NCBI GenBank assembly: GCA_041650395.1 | Contig: JBAZLG010000003.1 | Span: 310,917 to 374,916 of the forward strand | DNA: 64,000 nt | Source: Candidatus Micrarchaeia archaeon | Lineage (GTDB): Archaea > Micrarchaeota > Micrarchaeia > Anstonellales > VGKX01 | Direction of reading: 5' to 3' | Shown: positions 13,395 through 53,102 of the stretch, in pieces | How positions within the stretch are numbered: the stretch's first letter is position 1 | How the letters are laid out: each line of letters begins with the position of its first letter | The notes under the pieces: generated by a model | Told to the model about the DNA's origin: nothing | Databases searched by the model: none | Seen by the model: the letters and a program-made list of their open reading frames with translations, nothing else | Made by a program: the position numbers and the translations under genes

Positions 13395-13398
13395 TTTT

Positions 13399-15099: not shown

Positions 15100-15137
15100 T
15101 TAAAATTACCTTTTCATGCCAGTGGAGGCAGGTTTTA

Positions 15138-25651: not shown

Positions 25652-27187
25652 ATGCAAATAACCGAGATAGTCAATCACGAATCAATAACAAACTTTGCCG
25701 AAAGATTGTCTAACTATTACTCCAATGAAAAGAAGGGGACAAACAAGAAAGAAAAAGGACAATATTTTACGCCTGCGAGTATCGCGGCATACATGGCATC
25801 ACTCGCTGATGTTCAATCCGAATCGATAAAAATACTTGATCCGGGAGCAGGTCTTGGGATACTTTCAGTTGCATTAATAGAAAAAATAAGAGAAAAAAAC
25901 AAGCGGCTAATCAATGTAGAATTGACATTATACGAGAACGACGAAAAAATTATACCTTACTTAAACGAAGTAATGAATATAATGAAGAAAAGACTTTCGA
26001 AATATAATGTAGGATTTAATTACGAAGTCAGACAAGAAGACTTCGTTGCATCTAATGTAAAATACATAACACCAAAACTTAATTCTTTTAACGAAGCGGA
26101 ATATCCGAAATACGATATAATAATATCTAACCCGCCTTATTTTAAAATAAATAAAAAAGAAATTGAAACCTACGGAATCGAGCAAATAACTGCAGGCCAG
26201 CCAAACATATACTACATTTTCATGGCAATTGCGACAAACATGCTAAGCAATGAAGGCCAAATGATATTCATTACACCAAGAAGCTTTTGCTCTGGGTTGT
26301 ATTATAGCAGTTTTAGGAATTGGCTAATCAAAAGAGTCCATTTCTCACAGGTCCACATATTCAAATCCAGGAAAAACGTGTTTGCAAAAGACAAGGTACT
26401 ACAGGAGAATGTGATAACCAAATTTACAAAGACCAAGCCACTAAAGATTGTCATGTCTACAAGTGAAGGAAGAGACATGGACGAGATAAAAAAAACAGAA
26501 GTAAATGAAGACGACATAATCTACAAATCTAACGGGCACATATTCTTCAGGTTGCCTGCGGATAAGGAAGAACTTGCAATAATAAGAAAACTGGACAAAT
26601 TGCCGATGAATTTCTACAAACTAGGGTACAAAATATCAACAGGAAAAGTAGTAGCCTTTAGAAATAGTGAATATTTGAAAAAAGAGATTGGTGAAAAAGA
26701 CATTCCGTTGATATGGATGCATAACATAAGAAATATGAGGATACTCTGGCCGAGCGAGAAAAATGGGAAGGCTAGGGCGATAGAAAAAAACGAAAAAACA
26801 AAAAAATTGCTAATAGAAAACGGCAATTACGTTGTTATGAAAAGATTTACCACAAAGGAACAGAAAAAAAGATTTGACGTTGCGCTTGTCACAGATGAAG
26901 ATTTTAAAAAACAAGGATATTTTGCATTAGACAATATGCTAAATTACATATATTGCCCTGGCAAAAAGCTGAATAGGGAAACAATAAGTGGCATTGCAGA
27001 ATATTTATCTCTCCCAATAGTGGACAGATATTTTAGGATATTAAACGGCCATACTCAGGTCAATGCAAATGAAGTCTACGCGCTTCCATTTCCAGAAGCA
27101 AAAAAATTAGAAAAAATAGGAAAGAACACTGATAAATTTGCTAATGAAAAACAGGAAAGAATATTGGAACAAATATTAACAAATTAG
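25652..27187 (+). CDS. N6-adenine DNA methyltransferase, gamma class (PstI/BsuBI/Eco57I-like), 511 aa
   Basis: QYFTP motif, motif I ILDPGAGLGILS, motif IV IISNPPYFKI. Size matches M.PstI/M.BsuBI-type enzymes. Confidence 0.85.
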   Translation: MQITEIVNHESITNFAERLSNYYSNEKKGTNKKEKGQYFTPASIAAYMASLADVQSESIKILDPGAGLGILSVALIEKIREKNKRLINVELTLYENDEKIIPYLNEVMNIMKKRLSKYNVGFNYEVRQEDFVASNVKYITPKLNSFNEAEYPKYDIIISNPPYFKINKKEIETYGIEQITAGQPNIYYIFMAIATNMLSNEGQMIFITPRSFCSGLYYSSFRNWLIKRVHFSQVHIFKSRKNVFAKDKVLQENVITKFTKTKPLKIVMSTSEGRDMDEIKKTEVNEDDIIYKSNGHIFFRLPADKEELAIIRKLDKLPMNFYKLGYKISTGKVVAFRNSEYLKKEIGEKDIPLIWMHNIRNMRILWPSEKNGKARAIEKNEKTKKLLIENGNYVVMKRFTTKEQKKRFDVALVTDEDFKKQGYFALDNMLNYIYCPGKKLNRETISGIAEYLSLPIVDRYFRILNGHTQVNANEVYALPFPEAKKLEKIGKNTDKFANEKQERILEQILTN

Positions 27188-27201
27188 GCAGGGGTTGTTT
27201 C

Positions 27202-28131
27202 ATGAGGAAAGTTGACGATGCACTGGAAATCTTGAGAGAGCTTAACGTGCCAAGAAAACAACAGAATGAAAGGACAGCCCTGACTCTATTGGCTTTACTC
27301 TCGCTAAAAAACAACAAGCCTTGGAAAAGTGCCAAGAAAACTTTGATAAGAATACATGACATCATGATTTTCATAAAAAATGAATACAAGAAGAAATACG
27401 CAGAAAACACCAGAGAAACAATAAGAAGACAAAGCCTTCACCAACTGGAAAAAGAAGTAGGAATTGTTGAAAGAAATTCAGATGACCCAACAAGACCAAC
27501 AAACAGCCCAAATACAAAATGGGCGGTTACAAAAGAGGCACTTGAAACAATAAGAAGCTACGGGACAAAACAATGGAAAAAGAATGTGGACAATCTGATG
27601 CAAAAGCGAGGAAGAAGTGAAAGCTCCGGCTGGCAACGCGCAAAACCCGCACAAGGAGTAATTATAGATGAGAAGGAATATCCCTTGTCGCCAGGAAAAC
27701 ATAATAAACTCCAAATAGACATAATTGGAAACTTCAGGGAAATTTTTTGCAAAGACGCAGAAGTGCTTTATTTCGGTGACACCGCTAAGAAAATGCTCTT
27801 CTTAAATGAAAAGAAATTGAAGGAGATAGGACTGAAGATAACAAAACATGAAATATTGCCAGACATTGTCCTACTGGACAATGCCAAAAATAGACTTTAT
27901 CTTATAGAAGCAGTTACATCACATGGCCCAGTATCAAAGAAGAGACAAATTGAATTGACAGAGTACTTCGCAAAAGTCGGCTTTAAAAAAATTTTTGTCA
28001 GCGCTTTCCCCGACTTTAAAGAATTCAAAAGGCATATAGATGACATCGCTTGGGAAACAGAAGTGTGGATAGCTGAAATGCCGGAGCACATGATTCATTT
28101 CAACGGCGACAAGTTCCTAAAAATAGACTGA
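27202..28131 (+). CDS. Candidate cognate restriction endonuclease (BsuBI/PstI family), 309 aa
   Basis: It starts 15 bp after the methyltransferase stop on the same strand in the AT-rich island. The size and the N-terminal winged-helix-like region followed by a C-terminal acidic/Lys-rich region are consistent with the R.BsuBI/PstI family. The assignment is from gene context and memory only, with no alignment. Confidence 0.5.
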   Translation: MRKVDDALEILRELNVPRKQQNERTALTLLALLSLKNNKPWKSAKKTLIRIHDIMIFIKNEYKKKYAENTRETIRRQSLHQLEKEVGIVERNSDDPTRPTNSPNTKWAVTKEALETIRSYGTKQWKKNVDNLMQKRGRSESSGWQRAKPAQGVIIDEKEYPLSPGKHNKLQIDIIGNFREIFCKDAEVLYFGDTAKKMLFLNEKKLKEIGLKITKHEILPDIVLLDNAKNRLYLIEAVTSHGPVSKKRQIELTEYFAKVGFKKIFVSAFPDFKEFKRHIDDIAWETEVWIAEMPEHMIHFNGDKFLKID

Positions 28132-37437: not shown

Positions 37438-38466
37438 ATGGACTTGACTATTGCAGGCTATCTTGCAGGGCTTGGGATTCTCTCCCTCATTGCCGGCAAG
37501 GCGCTTGGCCCCGTCCTCATAGCGATAATACAGCATTTCACCGCAAGGACCAAGACTACCCTTGACGACAGGATATTCAAGGAGATATCCGGCCCCATAC
37601 AGTCCTTTTTCTTCGTATTCGTCTTTGTCATGGGCACGCACTACCTAGGCGTGTTCAATGACGCGGCGCGGGTAATCGACGATTACACGACCTCAATCGC
37701 CATAATTCTTGTGACCTACCTCCTTGTCAACGTGGCAAAGGCGTTTTTCGAGTGGTACGAGGAGGAGGGCATAAAGGACAGCAGGATAAAGCTGGACGTC
37801 ACCTTCCTGCCCCTTGTGAGGAAGATAGCGCAGATATTCATCGCAATAATCGGCCTTGCAATGGCATTGGCGCAGGTGGGCTTTGACGTCACGGGCATAC
37901 TGGCGGTGACAAGCGTCGCAAGCGTAGTGGTCGGCCTTGCGGCGCAGGAGACGCTTGGCAACATTTTCGCTGGCATGGCCCTGCAGCTCGACAGGCCATA
38001 TTATTACGGCGACTACGTGAAGCTCTCTTCAGGAGAGCTTGTCAGGCTGAAAAAAATAGGCATCAGGACCACGAGGCTTGCCGACATGGCGGGAAACACC
38101 ATAGTGGCGACGAACTCCGAATTCGCGAAACAGCGCGTCACCAGGCTCACGAAGGGCGCGAAAATCGCCTCGCTTGCTGTCCCGTTCGAGGCGCCCTGCG
38201 AAATATCTCCTGAAAGCCTGGAAAAGAGGATAAGGGAGGGGCTGACGCTTGGCCGGTTCGGGATTGACGACATGGGTTCTGTGCGGATTTACGTATCCAA
38301 GGTCAAGGCGCTTGGCTGGTACGAGGCGAACCTCATAGTCCATACGAAGGAGCCAGAACAGCTCGCGCTGTTTGCCGATTACGCGAACAGGATTATTTTC
38401 GAAATGATGGAAAAGGCCAGGCAGGGAAGCGGCGCAGCCAAGGGAGCAGGAAGGAAGAAAAGATAA
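37438..38466 (+). CDS. MscS-family mechanosensitive channel
   Basis: N-terminal TM helices followed by the MscS core VGLAAQETLGNIFAGMALQLDRPYYYGDYV. Confidence 0.85.
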   Translation: MDLTIAGYLAGLGILSLIAGKALGPVLIAIIQHFTARTKTTLDDRIFKEISGPIQSFFFVFVFVMGTHYLGVFNDAARVIDDYTTSIAIILVTYLLVNVAKAFFEWYEEEGIKDSRIKLDVTFLPLVRKIAQIFIAIIGLAMALAQVGFDVTGILAVTSVASVVVGLAAQETLGNIFAGMALQLDRPYYYGDYVKLSSGELVRLKKIGIRTTRLADMAGNTIVATNSEFAKQRVTRLTKGAKIASLAVPFEAPCEISPESLEKRIREGLTLGRFGIDDMGSVRIYVSKVKALGWYEANLIVHTKEPEQLALFADYANRIIFEMMEKARQGSGAAKGAGRKKR

Positions 38467-38493: not shown

Positions 38494-40644
38494 CTACTTG
38501 CAGAGATATACATAACCAGAAACAGTCGCCTGCCCGGAACAGCAATAGCTCTGGCTTGTGGCTGTCTTGCCCGCGGGAACGCAGCATTTCTTGTTGGAGC
38601 ATACAAGGCCGCTCTGGCAATCCGAGGATACAGAGCACGGGCCAAGGACGCTTGACTGGGGGCATGCCGTAGTCTGGGCTCTCCCGGAGCAGCAGTAATA
38701 GGGCGGATTATAAAGGTTAGGCGGGTTCCCGCAATAGCACATGCTGGTAATCTTGCCCTGGCCGCATTCCCTGTAGCACTGGTGCATGCCAACCCAGCAA
38801 TGGTATGTGGACGAGCAGTAGGCATAGCCGTCGCACATGCAGCTTGTCCCCCACGAGCCGCACTTGGCAGTGCACTTGGCGGTGGATGTTGAATAATAGG
38901 TAGTGCCTGTGCAGTATGCCTTTGCGGAGTCGAGGCAGTTCTGCTGCCCGTCCGAAGTGCACAATGGCACGCACTTCTTTGTGGCCGAATAGTAATACTT
39001 GCTTCCACTGCAAAGCGTATTGGAAGAGTCAAGGCAGTTTTGCTGGAGATTGGCCGTGCACTGCTGGGTGCAGGCGCTGTATTGGAGAACACCATTGCAG
39101 CAATAGCCTGAAACAGCAAGAGTGCCGCCGCAGTTGCAGCCTGTTGATACTACTGCGGCGTTGTTGGTGCATGAGGGCGCGCACACGTTGGTGAAGCAGT
39201 ACTGGCTTGTGCTGCAAACCGGCCCGTTGCCGCACTTGCACGTGCCCAGCTGGGCATTTGCACAGCATTGGGAAGTGGAATATGTATTCAGGCAGCAATA
39301 GCCTGAAGTCTTAAGCGAGCCTCCGCACAGGCAGCCTGATGAAGGTATGGCCCCTCCGGAGCACGCCACGGCGCACGTTGCCGACTGATGGGTGCCTGAA
39401 CAGCAAAAGCCGCTTGAATATATGCCGCTGCCGCACTTGCACGCGGAGGTTATGGAACCCTCGGAGCAGGAAGGGACGCATGTGTTCCCTGCGAGATAAC
39501 AATACTGGCTTGTGGTGCACACAGCGCCAGTCCCGCACTTGCATGAGCCCTGCTGCCCGTCAGTGCAGGCGACAGAGCATGCGCCGGACTGGCACGTGCC
39601 GCCATAACAGCAATACCTGCCTGTGGAGGAGGTGCAGACAGGGCCGGAAGTGCCGCACTTGCAGTCAAATACATTCAAGCCAGAGGCGCACTGGTCGTAA
39701 CAGCCGTTTACATCATAATGCCCGTCTGCGCAGCAGTAGCCGGAAGTCCTTGCCATTCCGCTGCACTTGCACTGCGAAGTTATCGGGCTGGTGTCGCTCC
39801 ATGCGCAGTCGGAAATGCAGGAGGCAGAACACGTGCCGTCAGTGCAGCACTTGCTTGAAGGCGAGCAGAGTGTGGAGGATGGGCCGCACTTGCACGTGGC
39901 ACTGACAGGGTTGTTGTTATTAGGCGTGCACGCCTGGGCGCAGGATGAGGAACATGACCCATCGGTACAGCACATGAGGCCTGCAGAGCAGACCTGATTG
40001 CCATTGCACCTGCACTGCTGGCTGGAGACAGAGCCTGTGGAGCACGCGGGGTAACAGTCGGACTTGCACGTGTTGTCGGAACAGCAATACTGCCCCGGGG
40101 AGCAGGTGCTTGAAGTCCCGCAAATGCAGGCCTGGCTGGCCTGCTGGCCTACGCCGCACTGCGAATATGCGGGGCAGGAAGTGCCCGAAGGCACGCACGC
40201 GCCATTGGAACAGCATGTCTGGCCTGAAGGGCATGTGCCAGTGCCGCCAACACTGCACGTGTTTGGAGGCGGATTGATTATTGATGATACCCAGCCGGAG
40301 CTGGAGCATGATACTGAAGTTCCTGCGAGCGTGGAGAGGAAGGGGGGCGCTACCGCGACCGTAGCCGCCGAGACAAGCGAGCCTGCCAGAAGGGTTGCAG
40401 CCCACACAGCGGCGCGCGCGCGCATTTCAGAGCCGGAGAACTGCCCGAACGCGTAGACGAGGCCGGACGAGATTGCGCCGATAAGGGAAACTATAGGAAG
40501 TACGGAAACAAGAGAGCCGCAAAGGTTTGAAGCAGTGGAATACAAAGTGTCGGTTTGCGAATATGCCAAGCCTGCGGCAATGGCCCAAACGAGCGCTAAA
40601 AACGAAATGCCCAAGAGGAAATCCCTGGCTTGAGAATGTCCCAT
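38494..40644 (-). CDS. Cysteine-rich (about 13% Cys) membrane-anchored surface protein, paralog A (716 aa)
   Basis: N-terminal 3 hydrophobic helices (FLLGISFLALVWAIAAG; LVSVLPIVSLIGAISSGLVYAFG; AAVWAATLLAGSLVSA). These are followed by about 600 aa of tandem CxxxxC/QYCCSDxTCxxxC knottin-like modules. Confidence 0.7.
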   Translation of the reverse strand: MGHSQARDFLLGISFLALVWAIAAGLAYSQTDTLYSTASNLCGSLVSVLPIVSLIGAISSGLVYAFGQFSGSEMRARAAVWAATLLAGSLVSAATVAVAPPFLSTLAGTSVSCSSSGWVSSIINPPPNTCSVGGTGTCPSGQTCCSNGACVPSGTSCPAYSQCGVGQQASQACICGTSSTCSPGQYCCSDNTCKSDCYPACSTGSVSSQQCRCNGNQVCSAGLMCCTDGSCSSSCAQACTPNNNNPVSATCKCGPSSTLCSPSSKCCTDGTCSASCISDCAWSDTSPITSQCKCSGMARTSGYCCADGHYDVNGCYDQCASGLNVFDCKCGTSGPVCTSSTGRYCCYGGTCQSGACSVACTDGQQGSCKCGTGAVCTTSQYCYLAGNTCVPSCSEGSITSACKCGSGIYSSGFCCSGTHQSATCAVACSGGAIPSSGCLCGGSLKTSGYCCLNTYSTSQCCANAQLGTCKCGNGPVCSTSQYCFTNVCAPSCTNNAAVVSTGCNCGGTLAVSGYCCNGVLQYSACTQQCTANLQQNCLDSSNTLCSGSKYYYSATKKCVPLCTSDGQQNCLDSAKAYCTGTTYYSTSTAKCTAKCGSWGTSCMCDGYAYCSSTYHCWVGMHQCYRECGQGKITSMCYCGNPPNLYNPPYYCCSGRAQTTACPQSSVLGPCSVSSDCQSGLVCSNKKCCVPAGKTATSQSYCCSGQATVSGYVYLCK
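39300..39790. repeat. Near-identical DNA block shared with 41362-41852 (offset 2062 bp) inside the paralogous Cys-rich genes. A second block, about 40366-40545 vs 42452-42631 (N-terminal anchors), is also near-identical
   Basis: Antisense ORF translations are identical or nearly so (39450..39674 vs 41374..41736; 39311..39544 vs the start of 40692..41606). Direct comparison shows 130 bp from 40379 vs 42464 differing at 2 positions. Confidence 0.75.
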
Positions 40645-40729
40645 ATATAATCCAGGGGATATTTGGCTGCAGTATATTTAATCCTGAGCAATTAGGGAAG
40701 CCGCCGGCATGATTGGAAAAAGGGCTTGC

Positions 40730-42730
40730 TCAAACGCAAACGTAATGCCCGCCGCTTTTCCTGCAAGAGTAGCCGGAGCAGCACTGCGAAGTGGAACTGC
40801 ACAGCATGCCATAGCCTATGCAGCAGTGATTGCTCTTGCACGCGAGGCCAGAACAGCAGGTATAGCCGGAAGTGCCCCCGCAGTAAGAGTTCTGAGTTGC
40901 GCATGAATAGGACGACTGCCACGTGCTTCCCTGGTTGTAGCAGTAGCCATAGGTCCTGATTGCGCCTGCGCAGTAGCACGCGCTTGTAATTTGCCCGTTG
41001 GGGCATTTGCCAACGCACTTGGAAGTGCCGGTGTAATAGTAATATGGCACACTGCTGTAACAGACATTGCCCGCGGTATCCACGCAGTTTTGCTGGAGGT
41101 TGGTTGTGCAGAGGTTGTAGCAGTTGGTTGCCTGCGGCACGCTGTTGCAGCAGTAACCCGAAGTGACAATTGTGGAACCGCACTTGCAGATGCTTGTGAC
41201 GGCCGCATTGTTGGTGCAGGCCGGGGCCACGCGGCAGTTGTAGCCGCCCACATAGTCGCAATAGCCATTTGAATTGCACAGGGTCTGGCCGCACTGGCAA
41301 TAACCCTGCTGGTTTTGTGCGCAGCACGAATACGTTGCCGAGTAGGTGCCCGAACAACAGTATCCTGACGTCTTTAGCACTCCATTGCACAGGCAGCCGG
41401 AAGAAGGTATGGCCCCTTCGGAGCACGCCACGGCGCACGTTGCCGACTGATGCGTGCCTGAACAGCAAAAGCCGCTTGAATATATGCCGCTGCCGCACTT
41501 GCACGCGGAGGAGATGGAACCCTCGGAGCAGGAAGGGACGCAGGTGTTCCCTGCGAGATAACAATACTGGCTTGTGGTGCACACAGCGCCAGTCCCGCAC
41601 TTGCATGAGCCCTGCTGCCCGTCAGTGCAGGCGACAGAGCATGCGCCGGACTGGCACGTGCCGCCATAACAGCAATACCTGCCTGTGGAGGAGGTGCAGA
41701 CAGGGCCGGAAGTGCCGCACTTGCAGTCAAATACATTGAACCCGGAAGCGCACTGGTCGTAACAGCCAGTTACATCATAATGCCCGTCGGCGCAGCAGTA
41801 GCCGGAAGTCCTTGCCATTCCGCCGCACTTGCATTGCGAAGTTATCGGGCTGGTGTCGCTGTGTGCGCAGTCAGGGACGCAGGATGAGCCGCAAGTGCCG
41901 TCAGAGCAGCAATACTGGCTCGGATAACAGATGCTTGCCGAAGGCCCGCAGGTGCATTCTGCCGCAAGCGGGGCAGTGTTGCTTTGCGGGCACGAGCAAA
42001 ATATCTTGCACGTGCCATCTGAACAGCACGTCAAGCCGGAGGAGCAGACCTGGTTGCCATTGCACCTGCACTGCTGGCTGGAGACAGAGCCTGTGGAGCA
42101 GGCAGGGTAACAGTCGGACTTGCACGTGTTGTCGGAACAGCAATACTGCCCCGGGGAGCAGGTGTTGGAAGTCCCGCAAATGCAGGTCTGGCTGGCCTGC
42201 TGGCCTACGCCGCACTGCGAATAGGACGGGCAGGAAGCGGTCGGGGCCACGCATGCCCCGCTCGAACAGCATTTCTGCCCAGCGCCGCACGCGCCCGCGC
42301 CCTGGCACGAGCATTGGGCGCTTGCTGTTGCGCCCGGGGTGCAGGCAGGGAGGCTGTTAAGGTCGAAAAACCAGCTCGGGCCCGAACCCTGGCAGCTCAC
42401 TTCAGAGCCAAGCATTGTCGAAAGCACAGGAGGCGCCACGGCCACTGCAATCGCCGAGACAAGCGAGCCTGCCAGAAGGGTTGCAGCCCACACAGCGGCG
42501 CGCGCGCGCATTTCAGAGCCGGAAAACTGCCCGAAAGCGTAGACGAGGCCGGACGAGATTGCGCCGATAAGGGAAACTATAGGAAGTACGGAAACCAGCG
42601 AGCCGCAAAGGTTTGAAGCAGTGGAATACAAGGGGTCGTTTTGGGAATAGGAAAGCCCGGCTATGGCAATCCATGCAATCATGAAAAACAAAGCCGCAAA
42701 AAGGAAGTCCCGTGATTGAGATATGCCCAT
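40730..42730 (-). CDS. Cysteine-rich membrane-anchored surface protein, paralog B (start at internal MGISQSRDF)
   Basis: The N-terminus is collinear with paralog A from MGISQSRDF; the ORF track start at 42796 adds 22 non-conserved residues. The same Cys module organisation is present. Confidence 0.7.
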   Translation of the reverse strand: MGISQSRDFLFAALFFMIAWIAIAGLSYSQNDPLYSTASNLCGSLVSVLPIVSLIGAISSGLVYAFGQFSGSEMRARAAVWAATLLAGSLVSAIAVAVAPPVLSTMLGSEVSCQGSGPSWFFDLNSLPACTPGATASAQCSCQGAGACGAGQKCCSSGACVAPTASCPSYSQCGVGQQASQTCICGTSNTCSPGQYCCSDNTCKSDCYPACSTGSVSSQQCRCNGNQVCSSGLTCCSDGTCKIFCSCPQSNTAPLAAECTCGPSASICYPSQYCCSDGTCGSSCVPDCAHSDTSPITSQCKCGGMARTSGYCCADGHYDVTGCYDQCASGFNVFDCKCGTSGPVCTSSTGRYCCYGGTCQSGACSVACTDGQQGSCKCGTGAVCTTSQYCYLAGNTCVPSCSEGSISSACKCGSGIYSSGFCCSGTHQSATCAVACSEGAIPSSGCLCNGVLKTSGYCCSGTYSATYSCCAQNQQGYCQCGQTLCNSNGYCDYVGGYNCRVAPACTNNAAVTSICKCGSTIVTSGYCCNSVPQATNCYNLCTTNLQQNCVDTAGNVCYSSVPYYYYTGTSKCVGKCPNGQITSACYCAGAIRTYGYCYNQGSTWQSSYSCATQNSYCGGTSGYTCCSGLACKSNHCCIGYGMLCSSTSQCCSGYSCRKSGGHYVCV

Positions 42731-42926
42731 GCTATCGGAATCAATATCCCCGCCCGGATATTTAAACTTGCGGTAGGTGCGGGCCCCGACGGGCATGGCA
42801 GGAGGATTAGGAAGGGAAAGCAGGCAGGGCGCCTCGTAGCGCGGGCTACAATATAATTATAAATCATATTAATTATACTTATTTTATGTCCCATGCCCAG
42901 GCATGGGAAAAAGCGTGGGGGATTTT

Positions 42927-43133: not shown

Positions 43134-44258
43134 TTGGCTGACGCAGGCATAATATCAATAGGCAACTTCGACCCTTCGAGGCTGTTGCCCTTCATTTTCG
43201 CCGCGATAGTGGCGTATTCCCTCGCAAAGGCGCTAAATTATTCCATAAAAATATTGGCAAAAAGGATAGCGGGCAAGACCAAAACCATACTGGACGACCT
43301 TATCCTGAACGCCATAGACAATCCCCTGACAATCGGCCTGACAGGATTGAGCATATACATAGCCGCGGTGTTCTCCGGCATAGACGGCCTGCCGGTTTTC
43401 CAGTTCGTATCGAGGGAATTCCTAATCCTGCTTGCGGCCTACACCCTGTACAACCTCTTTTGCGCAACCCTGCGCTGGTACGTGGCGGAGGTCGCGCCAA
43501 AGCGCAATCCCGGCATTGCCGAGATGGAAACGACAATCAGGCGGATTGCCGGCATATTCATAGTTTCAGCCGCAATAATCATGATACTCACTGCGGCCGG
43601 CATCGAGGTCAGCCCCCTGCTCGCGTCATTTGGCATTGCGGGCCTGGCTGTCGCGCTGGCGTTCCAGGACACGCTTGGCAATTTCTTCGCGGGCATATAC
43701 ATTTCACTTGACAGGCCCATAAAGGACGGGGATTACATACAGCTTGAGACAGGTCAGGAGGGATATGTGGAGAAAATAGGCTGGAGGAGCGCGAAAATCA
43801 GGCTTATCACCAACAACACGGTGATTGTCCCGAACTCAAAGCTGGCCTCGAGCATACTGACAAATTTCTACGCGCCCGACAAGACGCTGACCATACTGAT
43901 TCCCTGCTCGGTAAGCTATGCCACAGACCTGAAAAAGGCGAAAAAAGTCGCTATCGAGGCAATGAAGAGGCTGCAAAAGGCGGACAAGGCGATAGACAAG
44001 AAAACCGAGCCCATTGTCTGGTTCGAGCAGTTCGCCGATTCGGGCGTGACATTCAAGGCGTGGCTTGCCATAACAGAGTATTACGAGAAATACCGCGTCA
44101 CAAGCGAGGCGATAATCGCCATCCACGAGGCTTTCAGGAAAAACGGCATAGAGATACCGTATCCAAAGCGCGACGTTTACATCAGGCAGGCCCCGGGCGG
44201 GGCGGCCCTTCCAAGGCAGGGCTGGCATTTGTCTGAAAGCAAGGGCGCCAAACCCTGA
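43134..44258 (+). CDS. MscS-family mechanosensitive channel (second copy, diverged)
   Basis: TM helices followed by LAVALAFQDTLGNFFAGIYISLDRPIKDGDYIQL. The hairpin CCCGGC-gcaaaa-GCCGGG after the stop (44296-44316) is seen in sequence; a pyrimidine/T-rich stretch follows it. Confidence 0.85.
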   Translation: MADAGIISIGNFDPSRLLPFIFAAIVAYSLAKALNYSIKILAKRIAGKTKTILDDLILNAIDNPLTIGLTGLSIYIAAVFSGIDGLPVFQFVSREFLILLAAYTLYNLFCATLRWYVAEVAPKRNPGIAEMETTIRRIAGIFIVSAAIIMILTAAGIEVSPLLASFGIAGLAVALAFQDTLGNFFAGIYISLDRPIKDGDYIQLETGQEGYVEKIGWRSAKIRLITNNTVIVPNSKLASSILTNFYAPDKTLTILIPCSVSYATDLKKAKKVAIEAMKRLQKADKAIDKKTEPIVWFEQFADSGVTFKAWLAITEYYEKYRVTSEAIIAIHEAFRKNGIEIPYPKRDVYIRQAPGGAALPRQGWHLSESKGAKP

Positions 44259-44399
44259 AATGCCCGCTTTGCACTGCCACGCGGCTGCCGCGCCTTCCCG
44301 GCGCAAAAGCCGGGCCTGCCATTCTGCTTATTATTTTAAATTATAGCCGGCAATTCCTATACCCTGAAAAAGCAACGGGTTGTGGGGCGGAGAATCATA

Positions 44400-46943
44400 A
44401 TGCAACTAACTCCAGGCATGCGCCAGTACATGGAGGTCAAAGGCAAGCATCCGGACTGCCTAGTGCTATTCAGGATGGGCGACTTCTTCGAGACTTTTTA
44501 TGACGACGCGCGGACAGTCTCGCGCGAGCTTGACATAGTGCTCACGTCAAGGGGCAAGGACGAGAAAAAGGCGCCGCTTGCCGGGATACCGTTCCACGCG
44601 CTGGACAGCTACCTGGCAAAGCTTGTCAAAAAGGGCTACAAGGTGTGCATCGTAGAGCAGCTTGAGGACCCGAAGCTTGCAAAGGGGCTTGTGAAGAGGG
44701 GAGTGGTAAGGATAATCACCCCGGGCACGGTTGTCGAGGAGAACATACTTTCCAAGGATTCGAACAACTACATCTGCGCAGTGGCAAAGGACAAGGATAC
44801 CTACGGCATCGCGTTCGCGGACATATCTACAGGCGAATTCGTGGCGACCCAGGCGGAAGGCGAGGCCAAGCTGCTCTCGGAAATCGAGAAATTCAAGCCA
44901 ACGGAGGCCATAATACCCGCGGCGCTAGCCGACCATTCGATAGCGAAGTCCATCAGGGACAGGGGCGCGTTCGTGAATTCATTCGACGAGCGCCATTTCT
45001 GGGAGGACAGCGCCAAAAAGGAGCTGATGGGGCATTTCAATGTCTCGTTCCTGGACGGGTTCGGGCTTGCGGGGAAACCCGCGGCTGCCTGCGCAGCAGG
45101 CGCTCTGCTCGCCTACCTGAAAAAGCACCAGATGTCCCAAATCACGCACGTCAAGAAAGTGTCCTACTACTCTCCCGAAGGATTCATGCTTCTAGACTCG
45201 GCGACCATCAGGAACCTGGAGATTGTGAGGAACATCAGGGACGGCTCGAGCCAGGGAACGCTTTTTGAAATGCTTGACAGGACCAAAACGCCCATGGGCA
45301 CGCGCACGCTCAAGCGCTACCTACTCCAGCCGCTGATGGACATCAGGGAGATTGAAAAAAGGCACGACGCAGTCTCCGAACTCGCAGGCAACACTTTCGC
45401 AGCGGAGAAAATCAGGGAGGCGCTTTCCCGCTTCGGCGATTTGGAGAGGATAAACGCCCGCGTGTCGCTTGGGACCGCCTCCCCGCGCGACCTGGTGGGG
45501 CTCAAGGCGTCGCTTGCCGCGATACCCGCCCTCAAAAGGGAGGTGGCGCCGTTCAAGTCGGGGCTGCTTGCCCAGGCGGCCGGGATGCCGGGCATGGAGG
45601 AACTGCATTCACTTCTGGACTCGGCCATAAAGGACGAGCCCGCGGCAACCACTAGGGAGGGAAACATCATCAAGGAAGGCTATAACGGCCAGCTCGACGC
45701 GTTGAGGAAATCCGGGAGTTCCGCACGCGCGGAAATTGAAAAAATGGAGGAAGAAGAGAAGGCGCGCACGGGCATCAGGACGCTCAAGATAAAATTCAAC
45801 AGGGTTTTCGGCTATTTCATTGAAATTTCCAACTCATACCTCAAGCAGGTGCCGCCCGAATACCAGCGCAAGCAGACGCAGGCCAACAGCGAGAGGTTCA
45901 CCACGGATAGGCTAAAGCAGATAGAGACTGGCTATCTCGGCGCGCAGGAGAAAAGCATTGCCCTAGAATACGAGCTTTTCATGGAAGTGCTCGCAAAGGC
46001 AGCGCTAAATTCCGGGAAGATGCTCGAGGCTGCCGGGCAGATAGCCTCGATAGACTGCATGCTCTCCCTTGCACAGGCGGCGGCCGAAAACGGCTATGTC
46101 AGGCCTGCCATGTCGGAATCATACGCGATGTCGGTCGTGAACGGCAGGCACCCCGTGGTTGAGAGGATTGCGCCCGGGTTCGTGAAAAACGACTGCGCGT
46201 TTTCCGACGCGGAGAAAATGAAGATAATCACGGGCCCGAACATGGCTGGCAAATCCACATATCTGAGGCAGAACGCGCTTGCCATACTCATGGCGCAGGC
46301 GGGCAGCTTCGTCCCGGCGGACAGCGCCGCCATGGGCGTCGTGGACAGGATATTCTCGCGCGTGGGCGCGTATGACGACCTGTCCATGGGGCAGTCCACG
46401 TTCATGGTTGAAATGAGCGAGTGCGCGAACATACTCAACAATGCCACGGCAAGGTCCTTTGTCATACTCGACGAGGTAGGGAGGGGCACAAGCACGTACG
46501 ACGGATTCGCGCTTGCGACGGCCATTGCGGAGCACCTGTATTCGAAAATAGGCGCGAAGACCCTCTTCGCCACGCATTATCACCAGCTAAACGGCCTCGC
46601 AAAGTCTTTCCCGGGGATAAGGAACTACCACGCGCTTGTCAGCGAGGACAACGGCGAGATAACCTTCCTGAGGAAAATCGTGAAGGGCGGGACAGACAAG
46701 AGCTATGGCATACACGTGGCAAAGCTTGCGGGCGTCCCGGACGGCGTGATACGCCGCTCGCGCGAGGTCATGGCTAGGATAGAATCGGAAAACGGCGTGC
46801 CAAAGTCCGTCGAGTCGACCACCACCACGAAGTCAGACATTGAACTGCACGAGCCTGACACGGGCAAGAAAATCAAGATTCGCGAGGAAAAGACCGAGAC
46901 GAGGTACAAGGACAAGGGGCAAAAGACGCTAATGGACGCATGA
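44400..46943 (+). CDS. mutS: DNA mismatch repair protein MutS (bacterial MutS1 type)
   Basis: MQLTPGMRQYMEVKGKHPDCLVLFRMGDFFETFYDDA N-terminus. Walker A GPNMAGKSTYLRQ. ...STFMVEM..., DEVGRGTSTYDG. Start chosen at the ATG 18 nt inside the track ORF; a GGCGGAG SD-like motif lies upstream. Confidence 0.92.
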   Translation: MQLTPGMRQYMEVKGKHPDCLVLFRMGDFFETFYDDARTVSRELDIVLTSRGKDEKKAPLAGIPFHALDSYLAKLVKKGYKVCIVEQLEDPKLAKGLVKRGVVRIITPGTVVEENILSKDSNNYICAVAKDKDTYGIAFADISTGEFVATQAEGEAKLLSEIEKFKPTEAIIPAALADHSIAKSIRDRGAFVNSFDERHFWEDSAKKELMGHFNVSFLDGFGLAGKPAAACAAGALLAYLKKHQMSQITHVKKVSYYSPEGFMLLDSATIRNLEIVRNIRDGSSQGTLFEMLDRTKTPMGTRTLKRYLLQPLMDIREIEKRHDAVSELAGNTFAAEKIREALSRFGDLERINARVSLGTASPRDLVGLKASLAAIPALKREVAPFKSGLLAQAAGMPGMEELHSLLDSAIKDEPAATTREGNIIKEGYNGQLDALRKSGSSARAEIEKMEEEEKARTGIRTLKIKFNRVFGYFIEISNSYLKQVPPEYQRKQTQANSERFTTDRLKQIETGYLGAQEKSIALEYELFMEVLAKAALNSGKMLEAAGQIASIDCMLSLAQAAAENGYVRPAMSESYAMSVVNGRHPVVERIAPGFVKNDCAFSDAEKMKIITGPNMAGKSTYLRQNALAILMAQAGSFVPADSAAMGVVDRIFSRVGAYDDLSMGQSTFMVEMSECANILNNATARSFVILDEVGRGTSTYDGFALATAIAEHLYSKIGAKTLFATHYHQLNGLAKSFPGIRNYHALVSEDNGEITFLRKIVKGGTDKSYGIHVAKLAGVPDGVIRRSREVMARIESENGVPKSVESTTTTKSDIELHEPDTGKKIKIREEKTETRYKDKGQKTLMDA

Positions 46944-46952
46944 GGGCAGGGT

Positions 46953-48695
46953 TTGGTTAAAATGGGAAAAATAAGGTTCCTTGACAAGGAGACTATAAAC
47001 AAGATTGCCGCTGGCGAGGTAATAGAGAGGCCGGCCTCGATAGTGAAGGAGCTTGCCGAAAACGCGCTTGACGCCGGCGCAACTGAAATAGGCATAGAAG
47101 TGCGCGATGGCGGCAAGAGGTTCATCGCAGTTTCAGACAATGGCAGCGGCATGTCCGCGGAGGACGCGCGCGTGTGCGCCCTGTCCCACACCACAAGCAA
47201 GCTGTCAGACCTCTTCGACATCAGGACGCTTGGGTTCAGGGGCGAGGCCCTTGCAAGCATGGCGGCAGTCTCGCGCATGGGCATAACCACATGCGACGCC
47301 GAGGGCGAGAAAAAGGGCGCTGGCATGGAACTCGCGATAGAGGCGGGGGAGATCAAGTCCGAGAAAAAGGCCGGGCCAAGCGTCGGGACGCGCATAGTGG
47401 TCGAAGACCTGTTTTTCAACACGCCCGCGAGGAAAAAGCACCTCAAGGGCGCCGAGGTGGAGTTCCAGCACATCCTCTCCCTGGTCTCAAACTATTCCAT
47501 CGCATACCCCAAAGTTGTCTTCAGGCTGGTTTCCGACGGCAGGCAGGCGGTTGTGACTCCGAGGGCCGCAAGCATGAGGGACAGGATAACCACGGTCTGG
47601 GGCGCTGACATTGCAAAAAACCTCGTGCCCGTGTCGTACAAGGACGGGTTTTGCGCGATATCCGGGTTCCTTGGCAAGCCCTACATAACAAAGCCCGATA
47701 AGTCCATGCAGGTCATATTCGTCAATGGCAGGCTGGTGAAATCCGAAACCGTGTCGAAGGCGCTTGCGGAAGCGTACAAGACAATGCTGTTTTTGGACAG
47801 GCAGCCTGTCTGCGCGCTTGAATTCGAGATTGACTTCTCAAAGATAGACGTGAACGTGCATCCCCAGAAAAACATCATCAGGATAGAGAGGGAGGACCTG
47901 CTCTATAATGCCGTGTTCGAGGCAGTGAAGTCCGCATTCGCCGCGCAAAACCTCGTGCCTTCGGTAAGCCCCGACAATGTGACACGGTCAAGGGCAGTGG
48001 GGCAGTACGGCCTCGACAAGGGGACGCAAAGCACGCTTAGCGCCCGGACAGGCGAGGCGGTGGCGCACGCGCCCGCGACGGCCGACGCGCAGGCAAGGCT
48101 TGAATCGTTCATGCCAAAAAAGCTCGGCCAGCTTTTCATGCTAGGGCAGGCCAACAGGACATACCTGCTTGCGGCAACGCCGGAAGGGATTGCCATATTC
48201 GACCAGCACGCGGTCGAGGAGAGGGTGAATTTCGAGAAGTTCCTCTCGCAGGTGAAAGATTCAAGCGTGCAGAAAAACAGCCTGATTGCGCCCATTGTGC
48301 TCAATGTCGGCCCGGCAAAGGCCGCCGCGATAAGGCAGAACATGGAAAGCCTTGAGAGGCTTGGGATGGGCATTGTGCAAAAGGGCGAGGCGACTTTCGA
48401 GATAACCCACATGCCCCTGCTGCTTGGCATTCCCGGGAAAGACCTGGCAATGGAGCTGATTGCGGCTGTTGAGGACTCCAGGGGCACGCTCGAGGAAAGG
48501 ATAGAGGGGAAAATAGCCACAAAGGCCTGCCGCGCGTCGATAAAGGCGGGCGACATTCTTTCAATGCCCCAGATAAAGGAGCTTGTGCTTAGGCTTGACG
48601 CGTGCAAAAAGCCGTATACCTGCCCGCACGGGAGGCCAACCGGAATCAGGCTGACCTATGCAGACCTCGAGAAGAAGTTCAAAAGGGTGGAGTAG
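46953..48695 (+). CDS. mutL: DNA mismatch repair protein MutL
   Basis: GHKL ATPase motifs: NKIAAGEVIERPASIVKELAENALDAGAT, DNGSGM, GFRGEALASM. C-terminal dimerisation region. Confidence 0.92.
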   Translation: MVKMGKIRFLDKETINKIAAGEVIERPASIVKELAENALDAGATEIGIEVRDGGKRFIAVSDNGSGMSAEDARVCALSHTTSKLSDLFDIRTLGFRGEALASMAAVSRMGITTCDAEGEKKGAGMELAIEAGEIKSEKKAGPSVGTRIVVEDLFFNTPARKKHLKGAEVEFQHILSLVSNYSIAYPKVVFRLVSDGRQAVVTPRAASMRDRITTVWGADIAKNLVPVSYKDGFCAISGFLGKPYITKPDKSMQVIFVNGRLVKSETVSKALAEAYKTMLFLDRQPVCALEFEIDFSKIDVNVHPQKNIIRIEREDLLYNAVFEAVKSAFAAQNLVPSVSPDNVTRSRAVGQYGLDKGTQSTLSARTGEAVAHAPATADAQARLESFMPKKLGQLFMLGQANRTYLLAATPEGIAIFDQHAVEERVNFEKFLSQVKDSSVQKNSLIAPIVLNVGPAKAAAIRQNMESLERLGMGIVQKGEATFEITHMPLLLGIPGKDLAMELIAAVEDSRGTLEERIEGKIATKACRASIKAGDILSMPQIKELVLRLDACKKPYTCPHGRPTGIRLTYADLEKKFKRVE

Positions 48696-50222: not shown

Positions 50223-51941
50223 TTAGAACCTGTCCCGCCTGGTGTAACTCGTGTGCAGGAGCATCTCCGCCTTTTCAGAGCCGGGATGGTCGAGGAACTC
50301 CGAGTATATCCGCTTCACTACGGGGTTTTCATGCGAGCGGCGCAGGGGCAGCTGCCTGTCGGCCAGGTAAATCGCCTCCGCGCGCTTTTGCAATGTGTCT
50401 GGAGCCTGGTAAATGGGCTGCCCGCCGCCGCCGATGCACCCTCCGGGGCATGCCATCATTTCTATGAACTGGTAATCGTCTTTAACTTCAAGGAGTTTCC
50501 TTATGTTCATGCCCCCGCTGGCGCAGGCGAATTTCACTTCCTTGCCCTTGATTTGAATGGAGCCTTCCTTGATGCCTTTCATGCCCCTTAGCTGGTCGAA
50601 CTCGAGCCTCGATACTGCCTTGCCCTCCGCGAACTCATAGGCGGTCCTCAATGCGGCTTCCATGACCCCGCCGGAAGCGCCAAACACTGCGCCCGCGCCT
50701 GTGGACACGCCAAGCGCCGGGTCGAAGTTCTCGTCTGGGAGCTTGGCGAAGTCGACCTTGTTCATCTTGATGAGCCTGCCAAGCTCGCGAGTGGTGAGCA
50801 CGTAATCCACCGCGGAAGCCATTTCATCCCGCGTGGACTCGAATTTCTTGGCAGTGCAGGGCATGATGCTCACGACCACGATGTCCTTCGGCTTTATGCC
50901 CGCCTTTTTCGCCCAATATGTCTTTGTGAGCATGCCAAGCATCTCGTGCGGGCTCTTGCACGTGGACATGTGCGGGAACAGGTCCGGGAAGAAATGCTCC
51001 ATCATCAGTATCCATGCTGGGCAGCAGGTGGTAATCATCGGGAAAGTGCCGCCGCGCTCGAACCGCCTTAGGAATTCGGACGCCTCCTCCATTATGGTCA
51101 TGTCGGCGCCGAGGTTGACGTCGAATACATAGTCGAAGCCAAGCCGCCGCAGGGATGATACCATCTTGCCGGTCACAAGCGCGCCCGCGCCCATGCCGAA
51201 AAGCTCGCCAAGCGCCGCCCTGATTGAAGGCGCTGTCTGCGCCACTACGACTTTTGAATCGTCCGCGAGCGCCTCCCTGACCTCTTCAATGTGCGACCTC
51301 TCGGAAATGGCGCCTACGGGGCAGTTGAGTATGCACTGGCCGCACCTGATGCATGCCACGTCCGCCAGGTGCTTGCCGCCATAGGGCGAGACGTGCTCGC
51401 TGTAGCCCCTGCTTGAGAAATCTATGGCGTAAACGCCCTGTATTTCCGCGCAGACCTTGACGCACCTGCCGCAGTTTATGCACTTGTTGTTGTCGCGTAT
51501 CACGGAGCTGCCAAGGTCGGGCTTGTAATTCTTGAGGACTTCGAAGCGCGTGAACTCTATGCCCACCTCGTTGTAAACGCCGCAAATCTCATTGTCGTCC
51601 GTGACGGAGCACGACTGCGGCTTTGGAATCATCAGGTTGATGTTGAGCTGCCGTGCCCTCTTCACCCTCTCGTTTGAAGTGTTGACTACAGAGCCCTGCC
51701 TAGGCCTTGTCGAGCATGCGGGCACGAGTTTCCCGTCCATCTCGACCATGCAAATCCTGCACCTGCTTTCAGGGAACAGGCTCGCGTGGTAGCAAAGAGT
51801 AGGGATTTTGATTCCCTTTTCCTTGCATATGTCAAGCAATGTCTTCGAGCCGTCGACCTGCACGCCTGCCCCGTCAAGGGTTATTTCCATGGGCCTTGGC
51901 GCCGCGTCCTTGCCGCCGTCGGGTTCTATCCTGATTTTCAT
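50223..51941 (-). CDS. hydA: [FeFe]-hydrogenase catalytic subunit HydA (N-terminal 2Fe-2S domain, two 4Fe-4S domains, H-cluster domain)
   Basis: H-cluster signature motifs are all present: L1 TTCCPAW, L2 MPCTAKKFE, L3 EMMACPGGCIGGGGQP. N-terminal CYHASLFPESRCRIC (2Fe-2S) plus CINCGRCVKVC and CIRCGQCILNC (4Fe-4S). ATG chosen at 51941 (MKIRIEP). The track ORF begins with a TTG immediately abutting the hydB stop. Confidence 0.85.
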   Translation of the reverse strand: MKIRIEPDGGKDAAPRPMEITLDGAGVQVDGSKTLLDICKEKGIKIPTLCYHASLFPESRCRICMVEMDGKLVPACSTRPRQGSVVNTSNERVKRARQLNINLMIPKPQSCSVTDDNEICGVYNEVGIEFTRFEVLKNYKPDLGSSVIRDNNKCINCGRCVKVCAEIQGVYAIDFSSRGYSEHVSPYGGKHLADVACIRCGQCILNCPVGAISERSHIEEVREALADDSKVVVAQTAPSIRAALGELFGMGAGALVTGKMVSSLRRLGFDYVFDVNLGADMTIMEEASEFLRRFERGGTFPMITTCCPAWILMMEHFFPDLFPHMSTCKSPHEMLGMLTKTYWAKKAGIKPKDIVVVSIMPCTAKKFESTRDEMASAVDYVLTTRELGRLIKMNKVDFAKLPDENFDPALGVSTGAGAVFGASGGVMEAALRTAYEFAEGKAVSRLEFDQLRGMKGIKEGSIQIKGKEVKFACASGGMNIRKLLEVKDDYQFIEMMACPGGCIGGGGQPIYQAPDTLQKRAEAIYLADRQLPLRRSHENPVVKRIYSEFLDHPGSEKAEMLLHTSYTRRDRF

Positions 51942-51965
51942 GTGGGTTCTCCGCCTTGCCGCCAA

Positions 51966-53102
51966 TCACGCTTTTGTCGGTTTTTTCTTGAGGTATTCGA
52001 TGTAATCGGGCATGAAATGCTCAAGCCCCGTGAGTATGTGGTTGCCCGCCGACTGCCCAAGGCCGCAGATGCTTGTGTCCTGTATGTGCCTTGCAAGCTC
52101 TTTCAGGTCAGCGAGGTCTTTCACCTCGCCCTTCCCGGACCTGATTTTCTTGAGGAAGTCGAGCACCCTGATAGTCCCTTCCCTGCAGGGCGTGCACTTG
52201 CCGCAGGACTCGTAGGTGTAGAATTTCGCAATGCTGTAGGATATGTCCACTATGTTCTGCTTCTCGTCTATGAATATTACGGAGTATGCGCCGTGCTGGC
52301 AGTTTTCCTTGCAAATCATGTCCGATGTTATGGAGGCGCCGTAGTCGACCGGCATTATCCCCCCAAAACAGCCAAACGACATAGCCTTGAGCCTGTTCTT
52401 GGGCCTTGCGATGTCGACCACGGTGGACATCTTCACTCCAAGCGGGAATTCGTACACTCCGGGGTTTGTGATGTTCCCGGAAAGCGAGAACATGCGCATG
52501 TCCGGGTTCCAGTCGTCATAGAGCATGGCCTGCGCGGCGCACGTGAGGGTCTCGACGTTGTTTATCACAGTCGGCTTGCCCCAGAGACCGTGGACTGTGG
52601 GGTGCGAGTCGTCCGGGCAGCCGCGGAATCCCATGATAGACTGGACAATGGCCGTCTTTTCCCCGCACACGTATGCCCCGGCGCCCCTGACAATCTCGAT
52701 GGACACGTCCATGCCGGACTTCGCCACTACGTCGTCGACGTGCTCCTGAAGCCTCTCGCGCAGGTAGCCATATTCCCCGCGCAGGTAGATGAACGCCCTT
52801 TTCGCCCCTATGGCGTATGCGCATATCAGCATCCCCTCGACCATTGTGCGGGGATTGTGCATTATGATGAACTTGTCCTTGAAAGTCCCAGGCTCCCCCT
52901 CGTCCGCATTGCAGATTATGAACCTCTCGTCCGCTTGCGCGGCCCTGCACGCGCGCCATTTCCTGCCGGTTGGGTAGGCGGCGCCGCCCCTGCCCACAAG
53001 ACCTTTTTTCTCTATGAGCGCGATAACTTCCTCCGGCTGCATGGCTTTCGCCTTGTCAAGCGCGTACATGTTCGTCTGCCTTAGGATTTGCATAACCATC
53101 AA
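51966..53102 (-). CDS. hydB: NuoF-like NADH-binding flavoprotein subunit (HydB), core-only form
   Basis: GLVGRGGAAYPTGRKW (NADH/FMN site) and the 4Fe-4S motif ESCGKCTPCREG. Its stop abuts the hydA start region. Confidence 0.85.
   Translation of the reverse strand: MMVMQILRQTNMYALDKAKAMQPEEVIALIEKKGLVGRGGAAYPTGRKWRACRAAQADERFIICNADEGEPGTFKDKFIIMHNPRTMVEGMLICAYAIGAKRAFIYLRGEYGYLRERLQEHVDDVVAKSGMDVSIEIVRGAGAYVCGEKTAIVQSIMGFRGCPDDSHPTVHGLWGKPTVINNVETLTCAAQAMLYDDWNPDMRMFSLSGNITNPGVYEFPLGVKMSTVVDIARPKNRLKAMSFGCFGGIMPVDYGASITSDMICKENCQHGAYSVIFIDEKQNIVDISYSIAKFYTYESCGKCTPCREGTIRVLDFLKKIRSGKGEVKDLADLKELARHIQDTSICGLGQSAGNHILTGLEHFMPDYIEYLKKKPTKA

Follow-up and report, generated by a model that had tools for sequence, protein, structure and literature searches.

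A 64,000-nucleotide (nt) stretch of the genome of a Candidatus Micrarchaeia archaeon (GenBank assembly GCA_041650395.1, contig JBAZLG010000003.1, positions 310,917 to 374,916; hereafter the window) harbours two tandem minus-strand genes, A and B, whose products consist of a VirB2-type pilin domain followed by a giant, orphan Cys-rich ectodomain. We propose, with a probability of roughly 0.55, that A and B are pilin-anchored, disulfide-knotted and variable adhesins, of the cell surface or of a pilus, in a DPANN episymbiont. How DPANN archaea attach to their hosts and take up resources from them is largely unknown. In Patescibacteria, their bacterial counterparts, recent work showed that epibiotic growth requires a VirB2-like pilin gene array (in the epibiont Southlakia epibionticum) and a type IV secretion system (T4SS) (PMC12857230). 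Micrarchaeia carry a comparable multi-copy family of VirB2-like pilins, and those members that bear a large, rapidly evolving Cys-rich ectodomain of no known family are concrete candidates for host-contact molecules.

Gene A (38494-40644; NCBI WC506_06605) codes for a pilin-domain/Cys-rich fusion protein of 716 residues and gene B (40730-42730; NCBI WC506_06610) for its 666-residue paralogue. Both open reading frames (ORFs) are as described in the initial annotation of the window, and the two proteins are identical to NCBI hypothetical proteins encoded on a 375,815-bp contig of a Candidatus Micrarchaeia metagenome-assembled genome (MAG). The longest ORF of B reaches 42796 (688 residues); translation almost certainly begins at the internal ATG at 42730, because this codon aligns with the start of A and is that of the NCBI call, and because a TATA-like element, TTTAAATAT (42758-42766, minus strand, ~32 nt upstream of the ATG), lies inside the 22-codon extension. 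The latter (42731-42796) is probably untranslated. A TATA-like element is also found ~33 nt upstream of the ATG of A, ATTAAATATA (40673-40682, minus strand), and A and B alike have TTAAATAT 32-33 nt upstream of their ATG. Read from the sequence, these putative promoter elements suggest that the two genes have separate promoters. With 104 Cys residues in A (14.5%) and 98 in B (14.7%), both proteins are indeed Cys-rich, at levels above the 13% initially reported.

Evidence for a TrbC/VirB2-type pilin domain

The N-terminal region had been taken for an anonymous three-helix membrane anchor. Its role as an anchor is retained, and its parts can now be named: a signal peptide and a TrbC/VirB2-like pilin hairpin. 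In A, the predicted signal peptide (40558-40644, minus strand, residues 1-29) would be cleaved after AYS, before Gln, and is followed by a hairpin (40306-40557, minus strand, residues 30-113) of two hydrophobic helices joined by the loop GQFSGSEMRARAAVW, with two conserved Cys residues, Cys42 and Cys113. The corresponding region of B (42392-42730, minus strand, residues 1-113) scores 92.7 bits on the family profile described below. An AlphaFold2 model of the N-terminus of A built with the family alignment (pLDDT 88) shows a signal helix at residues 4-28 and hairpin helices at residues 31-69 and 72-107.

A phmmer search with residues 1-117 of A against 1.84e9 cluster representatives retrieved 246 proteins at E≤1e-3, mostly of 105-200 residues. 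In their alignment, a leader precedes a near-invariant Cys and a hydrophobic helix that contains a conserved Pro; the loop GQxMGAETRARAxxWA connects this helix to a second one, likewise hydrophobic, after which comes another near-invariant Cys. Cys42, Cys113 and the loop residues are kept in at least 90% of the members. The leaders end with a small-x-small motif followed by Gln, as in SFAQ, VSAQ and VAFAQ, the last of these in the family member P0176. Gln is the predicted mature N-terminal residue in A and also in TrwL of plasmid R388, where it follows AAA, and archaeal TedC is cleaved between AVA and QA (PMC9905601).

Pfam scans of individual members matched PF18895 (T4SS_pilin) in 34 of 56 cases and PF04956 (TrbC) in 20 of 56, nearly end to end. 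For ten small members typical of the family, the scores were 16-22 bits, under the Pfam gathering scores. P0176, which NCBI names a TrbC/VirB2 family protein, exceeds both (36.3 vs 27.9 for TrbC, 33.5 vs 26.6 for T4SS_pilin); it scores 112 bits on the family profile and shares 44% identity with residues 14-91 of A (E 1e-20), thereby linking A transitively to TrbC/VirB2. The sole non-spurious match of the family profile among PDB sequences was R388 TrwL (8s6h), in an alignment that begins at the mature N-terminus and covers helix 1 and the loop, and hhalign comparison of the family with three plasmid-derived TrwL sequences gave P = 4.5e-4. The architecture of the domain, with a predicted cleavable signal peptide and two hydrophobic helices connected by a short charged loop, is that of the superfamily. 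We thus regard it as well supported, by transitive homology rather than by direct threshold scores of A and B, that the N-terminal domain represents a divergent branch of the TrbC/VirB2 pilin superfamily.

Characterized TrbC/VirB2 pilins, such as R388 TrwL, Agrobacterium tumefaciens VirB2 and archaeal TedC and CedA1 (PMC9905601), have in common with it the predicted small-x-small leader before Gln, the two hydrophobic helices, the first containing a conserved Pro, the short charged loop with a YA-G motif ahead of it and a mature length of ~75-85 residues. Unlike them, A and B carry C-terminal Cys-rich extensions of 550-600 residues, are under the Pfam cut-offs and have no recognized VirB3, VirB4 or VirB6 neighbours, and the Micrarchaeia family has a conserved Cys pair flanking the hairpin.

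A pilin family of Micrarchaeia

One genome per species was scanned for the family, which yielded 250 confirmed matches; the best 77 loci, from 45 MAGs, were analysed. All these MAGs are labelled Micrarchaeota, Micrarchaeia, Anstonellales or just 'archaeon'. The family was retrieved almost only from Micrarchaeia. ORF calling combined with hmmsearch identified 134 pilin-domain ORFs in the 77 loci, with arrays of two to seven genes in 32 of them. The usual member is a gene of 105-150 codons in a tandem array. Our literature searches combining DPANN or Micrarchaeota with VirB2, pilin or Cys-rich surface proteins found no description of this pilin family.

The proteins differ most in their C-terminal tails, which range from none to >1,000 residues of Cys-rich repeats. 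Among 219 family proteins, the tail is shorter than 10 residues in 103 and longer than 300 residues in 11. The latter tails contain 14% Cys on average, ten of the 11 being Cys-rich, and tails of 30-120 residues already have 10-13% Cys. A and B are thus at the long end of a continuum, and their tandem layout is common in the family. The long members differ in their Cys patterns; the double module typical of A and B is also present in P0003 and P0148, and the ectodomains of the family appear to be modular and shuffled. P0003 (L078:946-4575; 1,209 residues) is composed of a pilin domain, ~800 residues of Cys-rich repeats including A/B-type double modules, and a C-terminal Gly_rich_2 domain (PF21722).

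Tandem arrays of 2-11 divergent VirB2-like pilin genes occur in Patescibacteria, and more than half of the pilin arrays of these candidate phyla radiation (CPR) bacteria are near virB4 (PMC12102498). The resemblance is close: both are ultrasmall episymbiont lineages, with tandem divergent VirB2-like genes matching the same Pfam models. The Micrarchaeia arrays differ in being archaeal and in that no virB4 was recognized in their proximity, and long Cys-rich C-terminal fusions are not mentioned in the passages on the CPR arrays that were consulted.

CedA/VirB6 proteins have a pilin-type hairpin N-terminal to a much larger protein (PMC9905601), which sets a precedent for pilin hairpins heading larger proteins; the C-terminal part of A and B is a predicted soluble Cys-rich ectodomain rather than a polytopic membrane domain. 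The giant SPEARE surface proteins of Nanohaloarchaeota contain a VirB4/TraG-like ATPase domain and have been proposed to mediate host contact (PMC10266531), which shows that fusions of T4SS components with adhesin-like ectodomains do exist in DPANN archaea. A and B are likewise predicted DPANN surface proteins with a T4SS component as one domain, with the differences that this component is a pilin and not an ATPase, that Cys modules replace Ig-like repeats, and that they have ~700 residues instead of several thousand. The metagenomic family member P0091 (518 residues) harbours two tandem pilin domains followed by a polytopic membrane region of ~330 residues without Pfam match. This layout matches that of CedA/VirB6, the N-terminus of which is pilin-like. 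P0091 may be the missing VirB6-type partner of the pilin family.

The Cys-rich bodies

The bodies of A (38497-40305, minus strand, residues 114-716) and B (40733-42391, minus strand, residues 114-666) contain 17% Cys, are nearly uncharged and consist to ~49% of Ser, Thr, Gly, Ala and Asn. As first noted, they are built of tandem Cys modules. There are ~10 per protein, each of 31-41 residues and opening with CxC[G/N/S], starting at residue 173 in A and 183 in B. In A, the CxCG module array (39040-40128, residues 173-535) is followed by a divergent Cys-rich C-terminal part (38497-39039); in B, the array spans approximately 40979-42184. A recurring unit of ~70 residues, CxCG-x-C-xxxQYC-x-C-xxx-C ... 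CxCG-x-SGYCC-x-C, is common to A, B, P0003 and P0148. Among the Cys spacings, 0 occurs 13 times and 1 occurs 12-13 times. The nine clearly delimited modules of A all have an even number of Cys residues, six or eight, and the 6-Cys modules lack two of the Cys found in the 8-Cys modules, namely the second residue of the CC pair and a Cys further along.

We modelled residues 292-468 of A with AlphaFold2 using an 11-row alignment of paralogous modules. The model, with a mean pLDDT of 69, comprises short beta-hairpins; confidence rises to pLDDT 78-92 over residues 362-461, where the alignment is deepest.

The modules could not be assigned to a known family, in keeping with the initial annotation. 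Searches of Pfam and NCBIfam (E≤1) and of PDB sequences with the full proteins gave no match for the bodies, and the best Foldseek scores of the body model against the PDB were E 5.9 (hirudin) and 8.6 (wheat-germ agglutinin). A profile of the ~70-residue double module run against 5.8e9 proteins retrieved 196 word-sharing candidates, none significant, in a search of low power that missed A and B themselves. Known Cys-rich repeat families, including EGF, granulin, hevein, TNFR-CRD and metallothionein, gave neither a sequence-profile nor a fold match with the modules.

Disulfide-rich ectodomains made of tandem repeats include granulins, EGF and laminin-EGF domains, hevein and wheat-germ agglutinin, and the variant surface proteins of Giardia. 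The A and B modules are similar to them in being short, with 6-8 Cys, CC doublets and predicted small beta-hairpins, and A and B are similar to the Giardia proteins in being membrane-anchored, multi-copy and recombining; they differ from all of these by their lack of a sequence or fold match. The modules are predicted to represent a new disulfide-rich repeat that deserves structural study.

The abundance of Cys raises the question of metal binding, i.e., whether the body might be an extracellular or periplasm-like metal-binding domain, acting as a metallothionein-like thiolate 'sponge' or as a mineral-binding surface. CxC and CC motifs, which presumably resemble those of metallothioneins, recur in every module, the composition is rich in Ser, Gly, Thr and Ala, and an [FeFe]-hydrogenase gene in the window suggests an anaerobe. 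We nevertheless consider this function improbable: there is no metallothionein match in Pfam or NCBIfam at E≤1, every delimited module has an even number of Cys, with the 6- and 8-Cys variants differing by two as disulfide partners would, and the hairpins predicted by AlphaFold2 are regular, unlike the irregular wraps of metal-thiolate clusters.

Potential N-glycosylation sites provide an indication of location. N-x-S/T sequons are entirely missing from the two bodies, where shuffled sequences lead one to expect 6.8 in A and 5.5 in B (P < 0.0005 and P = 0.0025). Such depletion is most readily understood if the domain meets the glycosylation machinery outside the cell. Among the other long members, P0148, P0073 and P0081 are also depleted in sequons, and P0003, P0090 and P0120 are enriched (20-23 observed vs 12-16 expected). 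Two opposite glycosylation regimes thus apparently coexist within one pilin family. Such selection, whether for or against sequons, is an argument for an extracellular location of the bodies of the long members. Together with the predicted signal peptide, the two-helix hairpin and the even Cys numbers of the nine delimited modules of A, sequon depletion indicates that A and B are very probably extracytoplasmic and membrane-anchored, in line with their first description as N-terminally anchored surface proteins.

Mosaic identity of A and B

A and B share 61.5% identity overall, with a strongly patchy distribution. The initial annotation reported two shared segments, an N-terminal one with 60 identical residues and a central one identical at the protein level. 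The former corresponds to residues 34-93, which are indeed consecutive and identical. Over the latter (39300-39790 vs 41362-41852), the near-identity of the DNA is borne out, with 466 of 491 nt identical, and the protein sequences are near-identical rather than identical (156 of 163 residues). Moreover, there are three blocks of high nucleotide identity instead of two, all on the minus strand: 40360-40554 in A (residues 31-95) and 42446-42640 in B (184/195 nt, 94%), 39955-40167 and 42011-42223 (residues 160-230 of A; 196/213 nt, 92%), and 39325-39774 and 41387-41836 (residues 291-440 of A; 434/450 nt, 96%, with a perfect run of 194 nt). The C-terminal thirds of the proteins are ~30-50% identical, with indels, and 93 Cys residues are aligned between A and B.

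Synonymous sites distinguish recent homogenization from constraint on the proteins. Where A and B encode the same amino acid, their codons differ at 21 of 268 positions within the three blocks and at 90 of 180 outside (Fisher P = 2.7e-24). As protein constraint cannot erase synonymous differences, the blocks must have been homogenized recently. This pattern indicates an old tandem duplication followed by segmental homogenization through gene conversion or unequal recombination, and it substantiates the duplication and conversion first suspected.

Such a pair might also arise in assembly, by duplication of a single gene or by tandem stitching of two strain variants. The perfect identity runs of up to 194 nt exceed typical assembly k-mers, and the locus is known from one contig, no independent copies or relatives of A or B being found in the contig records for A or in metagenome scans with A and with B. 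An artefact is nonetheless very unlikely, considering that 18% of 1,390 aligned bases differ between A and B, that their C-terminal thirds are unalignable, that both copies have intact reading frames, each with a promoter-like element of its own, and that tandem arrays are common in the family.

A model for A and B and its difficulties

According to the adhesin model, A and B would be paralogous genes with separate promoters, and their products would be secreted by means of Sec-type signal peptides, predicted to be cleaved before Gln. The hairpin would adopt an N-out/C-out topology, placing the charged, Arg-rich loop GQxxGxExRARxxxW in the cytoplasm, or on the lumen side in a pilus, and the conserved Cys at each outer end of the hairpin could form a Cys42-Cys113 disulfide outside. 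The 550-600-residue extracellular part may be a stiff rod of ~10 modules, each a small beta-hairpin unit stapled by intramodule disulfides, and would end in the divergent Cys-rich C-terminal tip. The hairpin would either anchor this rod in the membrane or insert it into a VirB2-type filament as a minor or tip subunit. Projecting from the cell surface, the rod could serve as an adhesin or host-contact structure, for adhesion to a host or a substrate. Gene conversion between the two copies would homogenize the anchor and the proximal modules and let the distal tip diverge, possibly giving rise to two specificities.

Several observations weigh against this model. With respect to the pilin domain, A and B themselves are under the Pfam thresholds (16.1 bits for B on TrbC, with a cut-off of 27.9, and no match for A at E≤1), the hhalign probability of the family against TrwL is just 33%, and Foldseek searches of the PDB with the hairpin model returned generic helical matches, a fold too simple to be informative. 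A homopolymeric VirB2-type pilus could hardly accommodate a 600-residue appendage on each subunit. The [FeFe]-hydrogenase hints at an anaerobe whose extracellular thiols might stay reduced. Close relatives of A and B are absent from the collections searched.

Genes for T4SS partners were sought by clustering the neighbours of the pilin genes in the 77 loci, by Pfam analyses of Walker-A proteins and of large unannotated neighbours, and by inspection of the annotations of three further loci. VirB4, VirB6 or other T4SS genes were not recognized in the window or within ~10 kb of the pilin genes in the 77 loci, and linkage to VirB3/VirB4/VirB6-type genes was not found in the three further annotated loci either. 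The Walker-A proteins near the arrays are Cdc6, RFC, Cdc48, SRP54 and a single T2SSE-family ATPase, located 5 kb from the array of locus L062 and probably unrelated. Large unannotated neighbours had no Pfam match. The recurrent neighbours of the arrays are mostly housekeeping genes (eRF1, SOD, tRNase Z, PheRS and a Na+/H+ exchanger).

The lack of recognized T4SS assembly genes near any family member is compatible with another hypothesis, in which the hairpin is a mere membrane anchor and A and B coat the cell as structural proteins of an envelope or stalk type, S-layer-like or glycocalyx-like, involved neither in a filament nor in host adhesion. The size of the body relative to the pilin domain and its bland composition, with few charges, also fit such a role. 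The conservation of the loop and of both flanking Cys residues goes beyond the needs of a passive anchor, however; the tandem arrays of divergent small copies resemble pilin repertoires, and divergence between the proteins is greatest at their distal tip, as would suit recognition. We therefore find a purely structural role rather unlikely and favour pilin-anchored adhesins.

Genomic context

The A/B pair is bracketed by two genes that are both of the MscS family by Pfam (PF00924, PF21088 and PF21082), at 37438-38466 and 43134-44258, as initially annotated. This arrangement had raised the possibility of a functional osmotic or envelope-stress locus. Both flanking genes do code for genuine MscS-family channels, but they are on the strand opposite to A and B, one convergent and one divergent, they are old paralogues with 31.6% identity to each other, and A and B have TATA-like elements of their own. 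In the 77 related loci, no MscS homologue was found within ~10 kb of pilin genes, and hence the gene order MscS, Cys-rich, Cys-rich, MscS is not conserved. In the absence of co-orientation and of conserved adjacency, we rejected an MscS-linked stress operon; a functional locus of this type is extremely unlikely, and the MscS bracket is best read as a coincidence.

Other genes recur near the pilin arrays of the family. A PAC2-family gene (PF09754, proteasome-assembly-chaperone-like) follows the small-pilin array, in the same orientation and 0-490 nt further downstream, in 19 of the 77 loci (L005, L007, L012, L014, L017, L020 and 13 others; e.g., L012:11251-12009). In nanohaloarchaea, a proteasome activator gene lies beside the gene for a VirB4-containing giant surface protein (PMC10266531). 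The PAC2 adjacency could reflect lineage synteny or a functional link. In approximately eight loci, genes for PMT_2 (GT-C) and GT2 glycosyltransferases are directly beside pilin arrays (e.g., L082:10774-14554, L083:10808-14514, L032:10742-13791 and L040:345-3942), which suggests that the pilins are glycosylated. None of the recurrent array neighbours, PMT_2 and GT2 included, is present in the window.

These data allow a broader, more tentative hypothesis, which we regard as possible though doubtful: Micrarchaeia would own an expanded, glycosylation-linked VirB2-type pilin system, a parallel to the essential CPR pilin arrays that is not clustered with recognizable VirB4 or VirB6 genes. In some lineages its pilins would have become giant pilin-adhesins knotted by disulfides, A and B among them, that decorate or cap a conjugation-type filament for attachment to the host cell or exchange of material with it, and gene conversion between tandem copies would generate surface variation.

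Other features of the window

Elsewhere, the window has ordinary archaeal housekeeping genes, including those for ProRS, RtcB, a ROK kinase, PGI, MutS, an RNase P p30-like protein and an [FeFe]-hydrogenase. At 44382-48695 and 50223-53102 lie genes for MutS and MutL of bacterial type and for the [FeFe]-hydrogenase, which has a NuoF-like subunit. This gene set suggests that the archaeon lives by fermentation and is probably anaerobic, a point that matters for the oxidation state of its extracellular Cys residues.

A 4,050-residue ORF (1242-13394, minus strand) has weak matches to Sde0182_C and CarboxypepD_reg, and no others. It is followed by genes for a 566-residue CARDB protein (13399-15099, minus strand) and a 534-residue protein without family (15138-16742, minus strand), and this trio (1242-16742) resembles the giant surface-protein clusters typical of DPANN archaea. 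Finally, a low-GC island at 25652-28131 (35% vs ~56%) contains genes for an Eco57I-like N6-methyltransferase and a BsuBI/PstI-type restriction endonuclease and is probably a horizontally acquired restriction-modification system.

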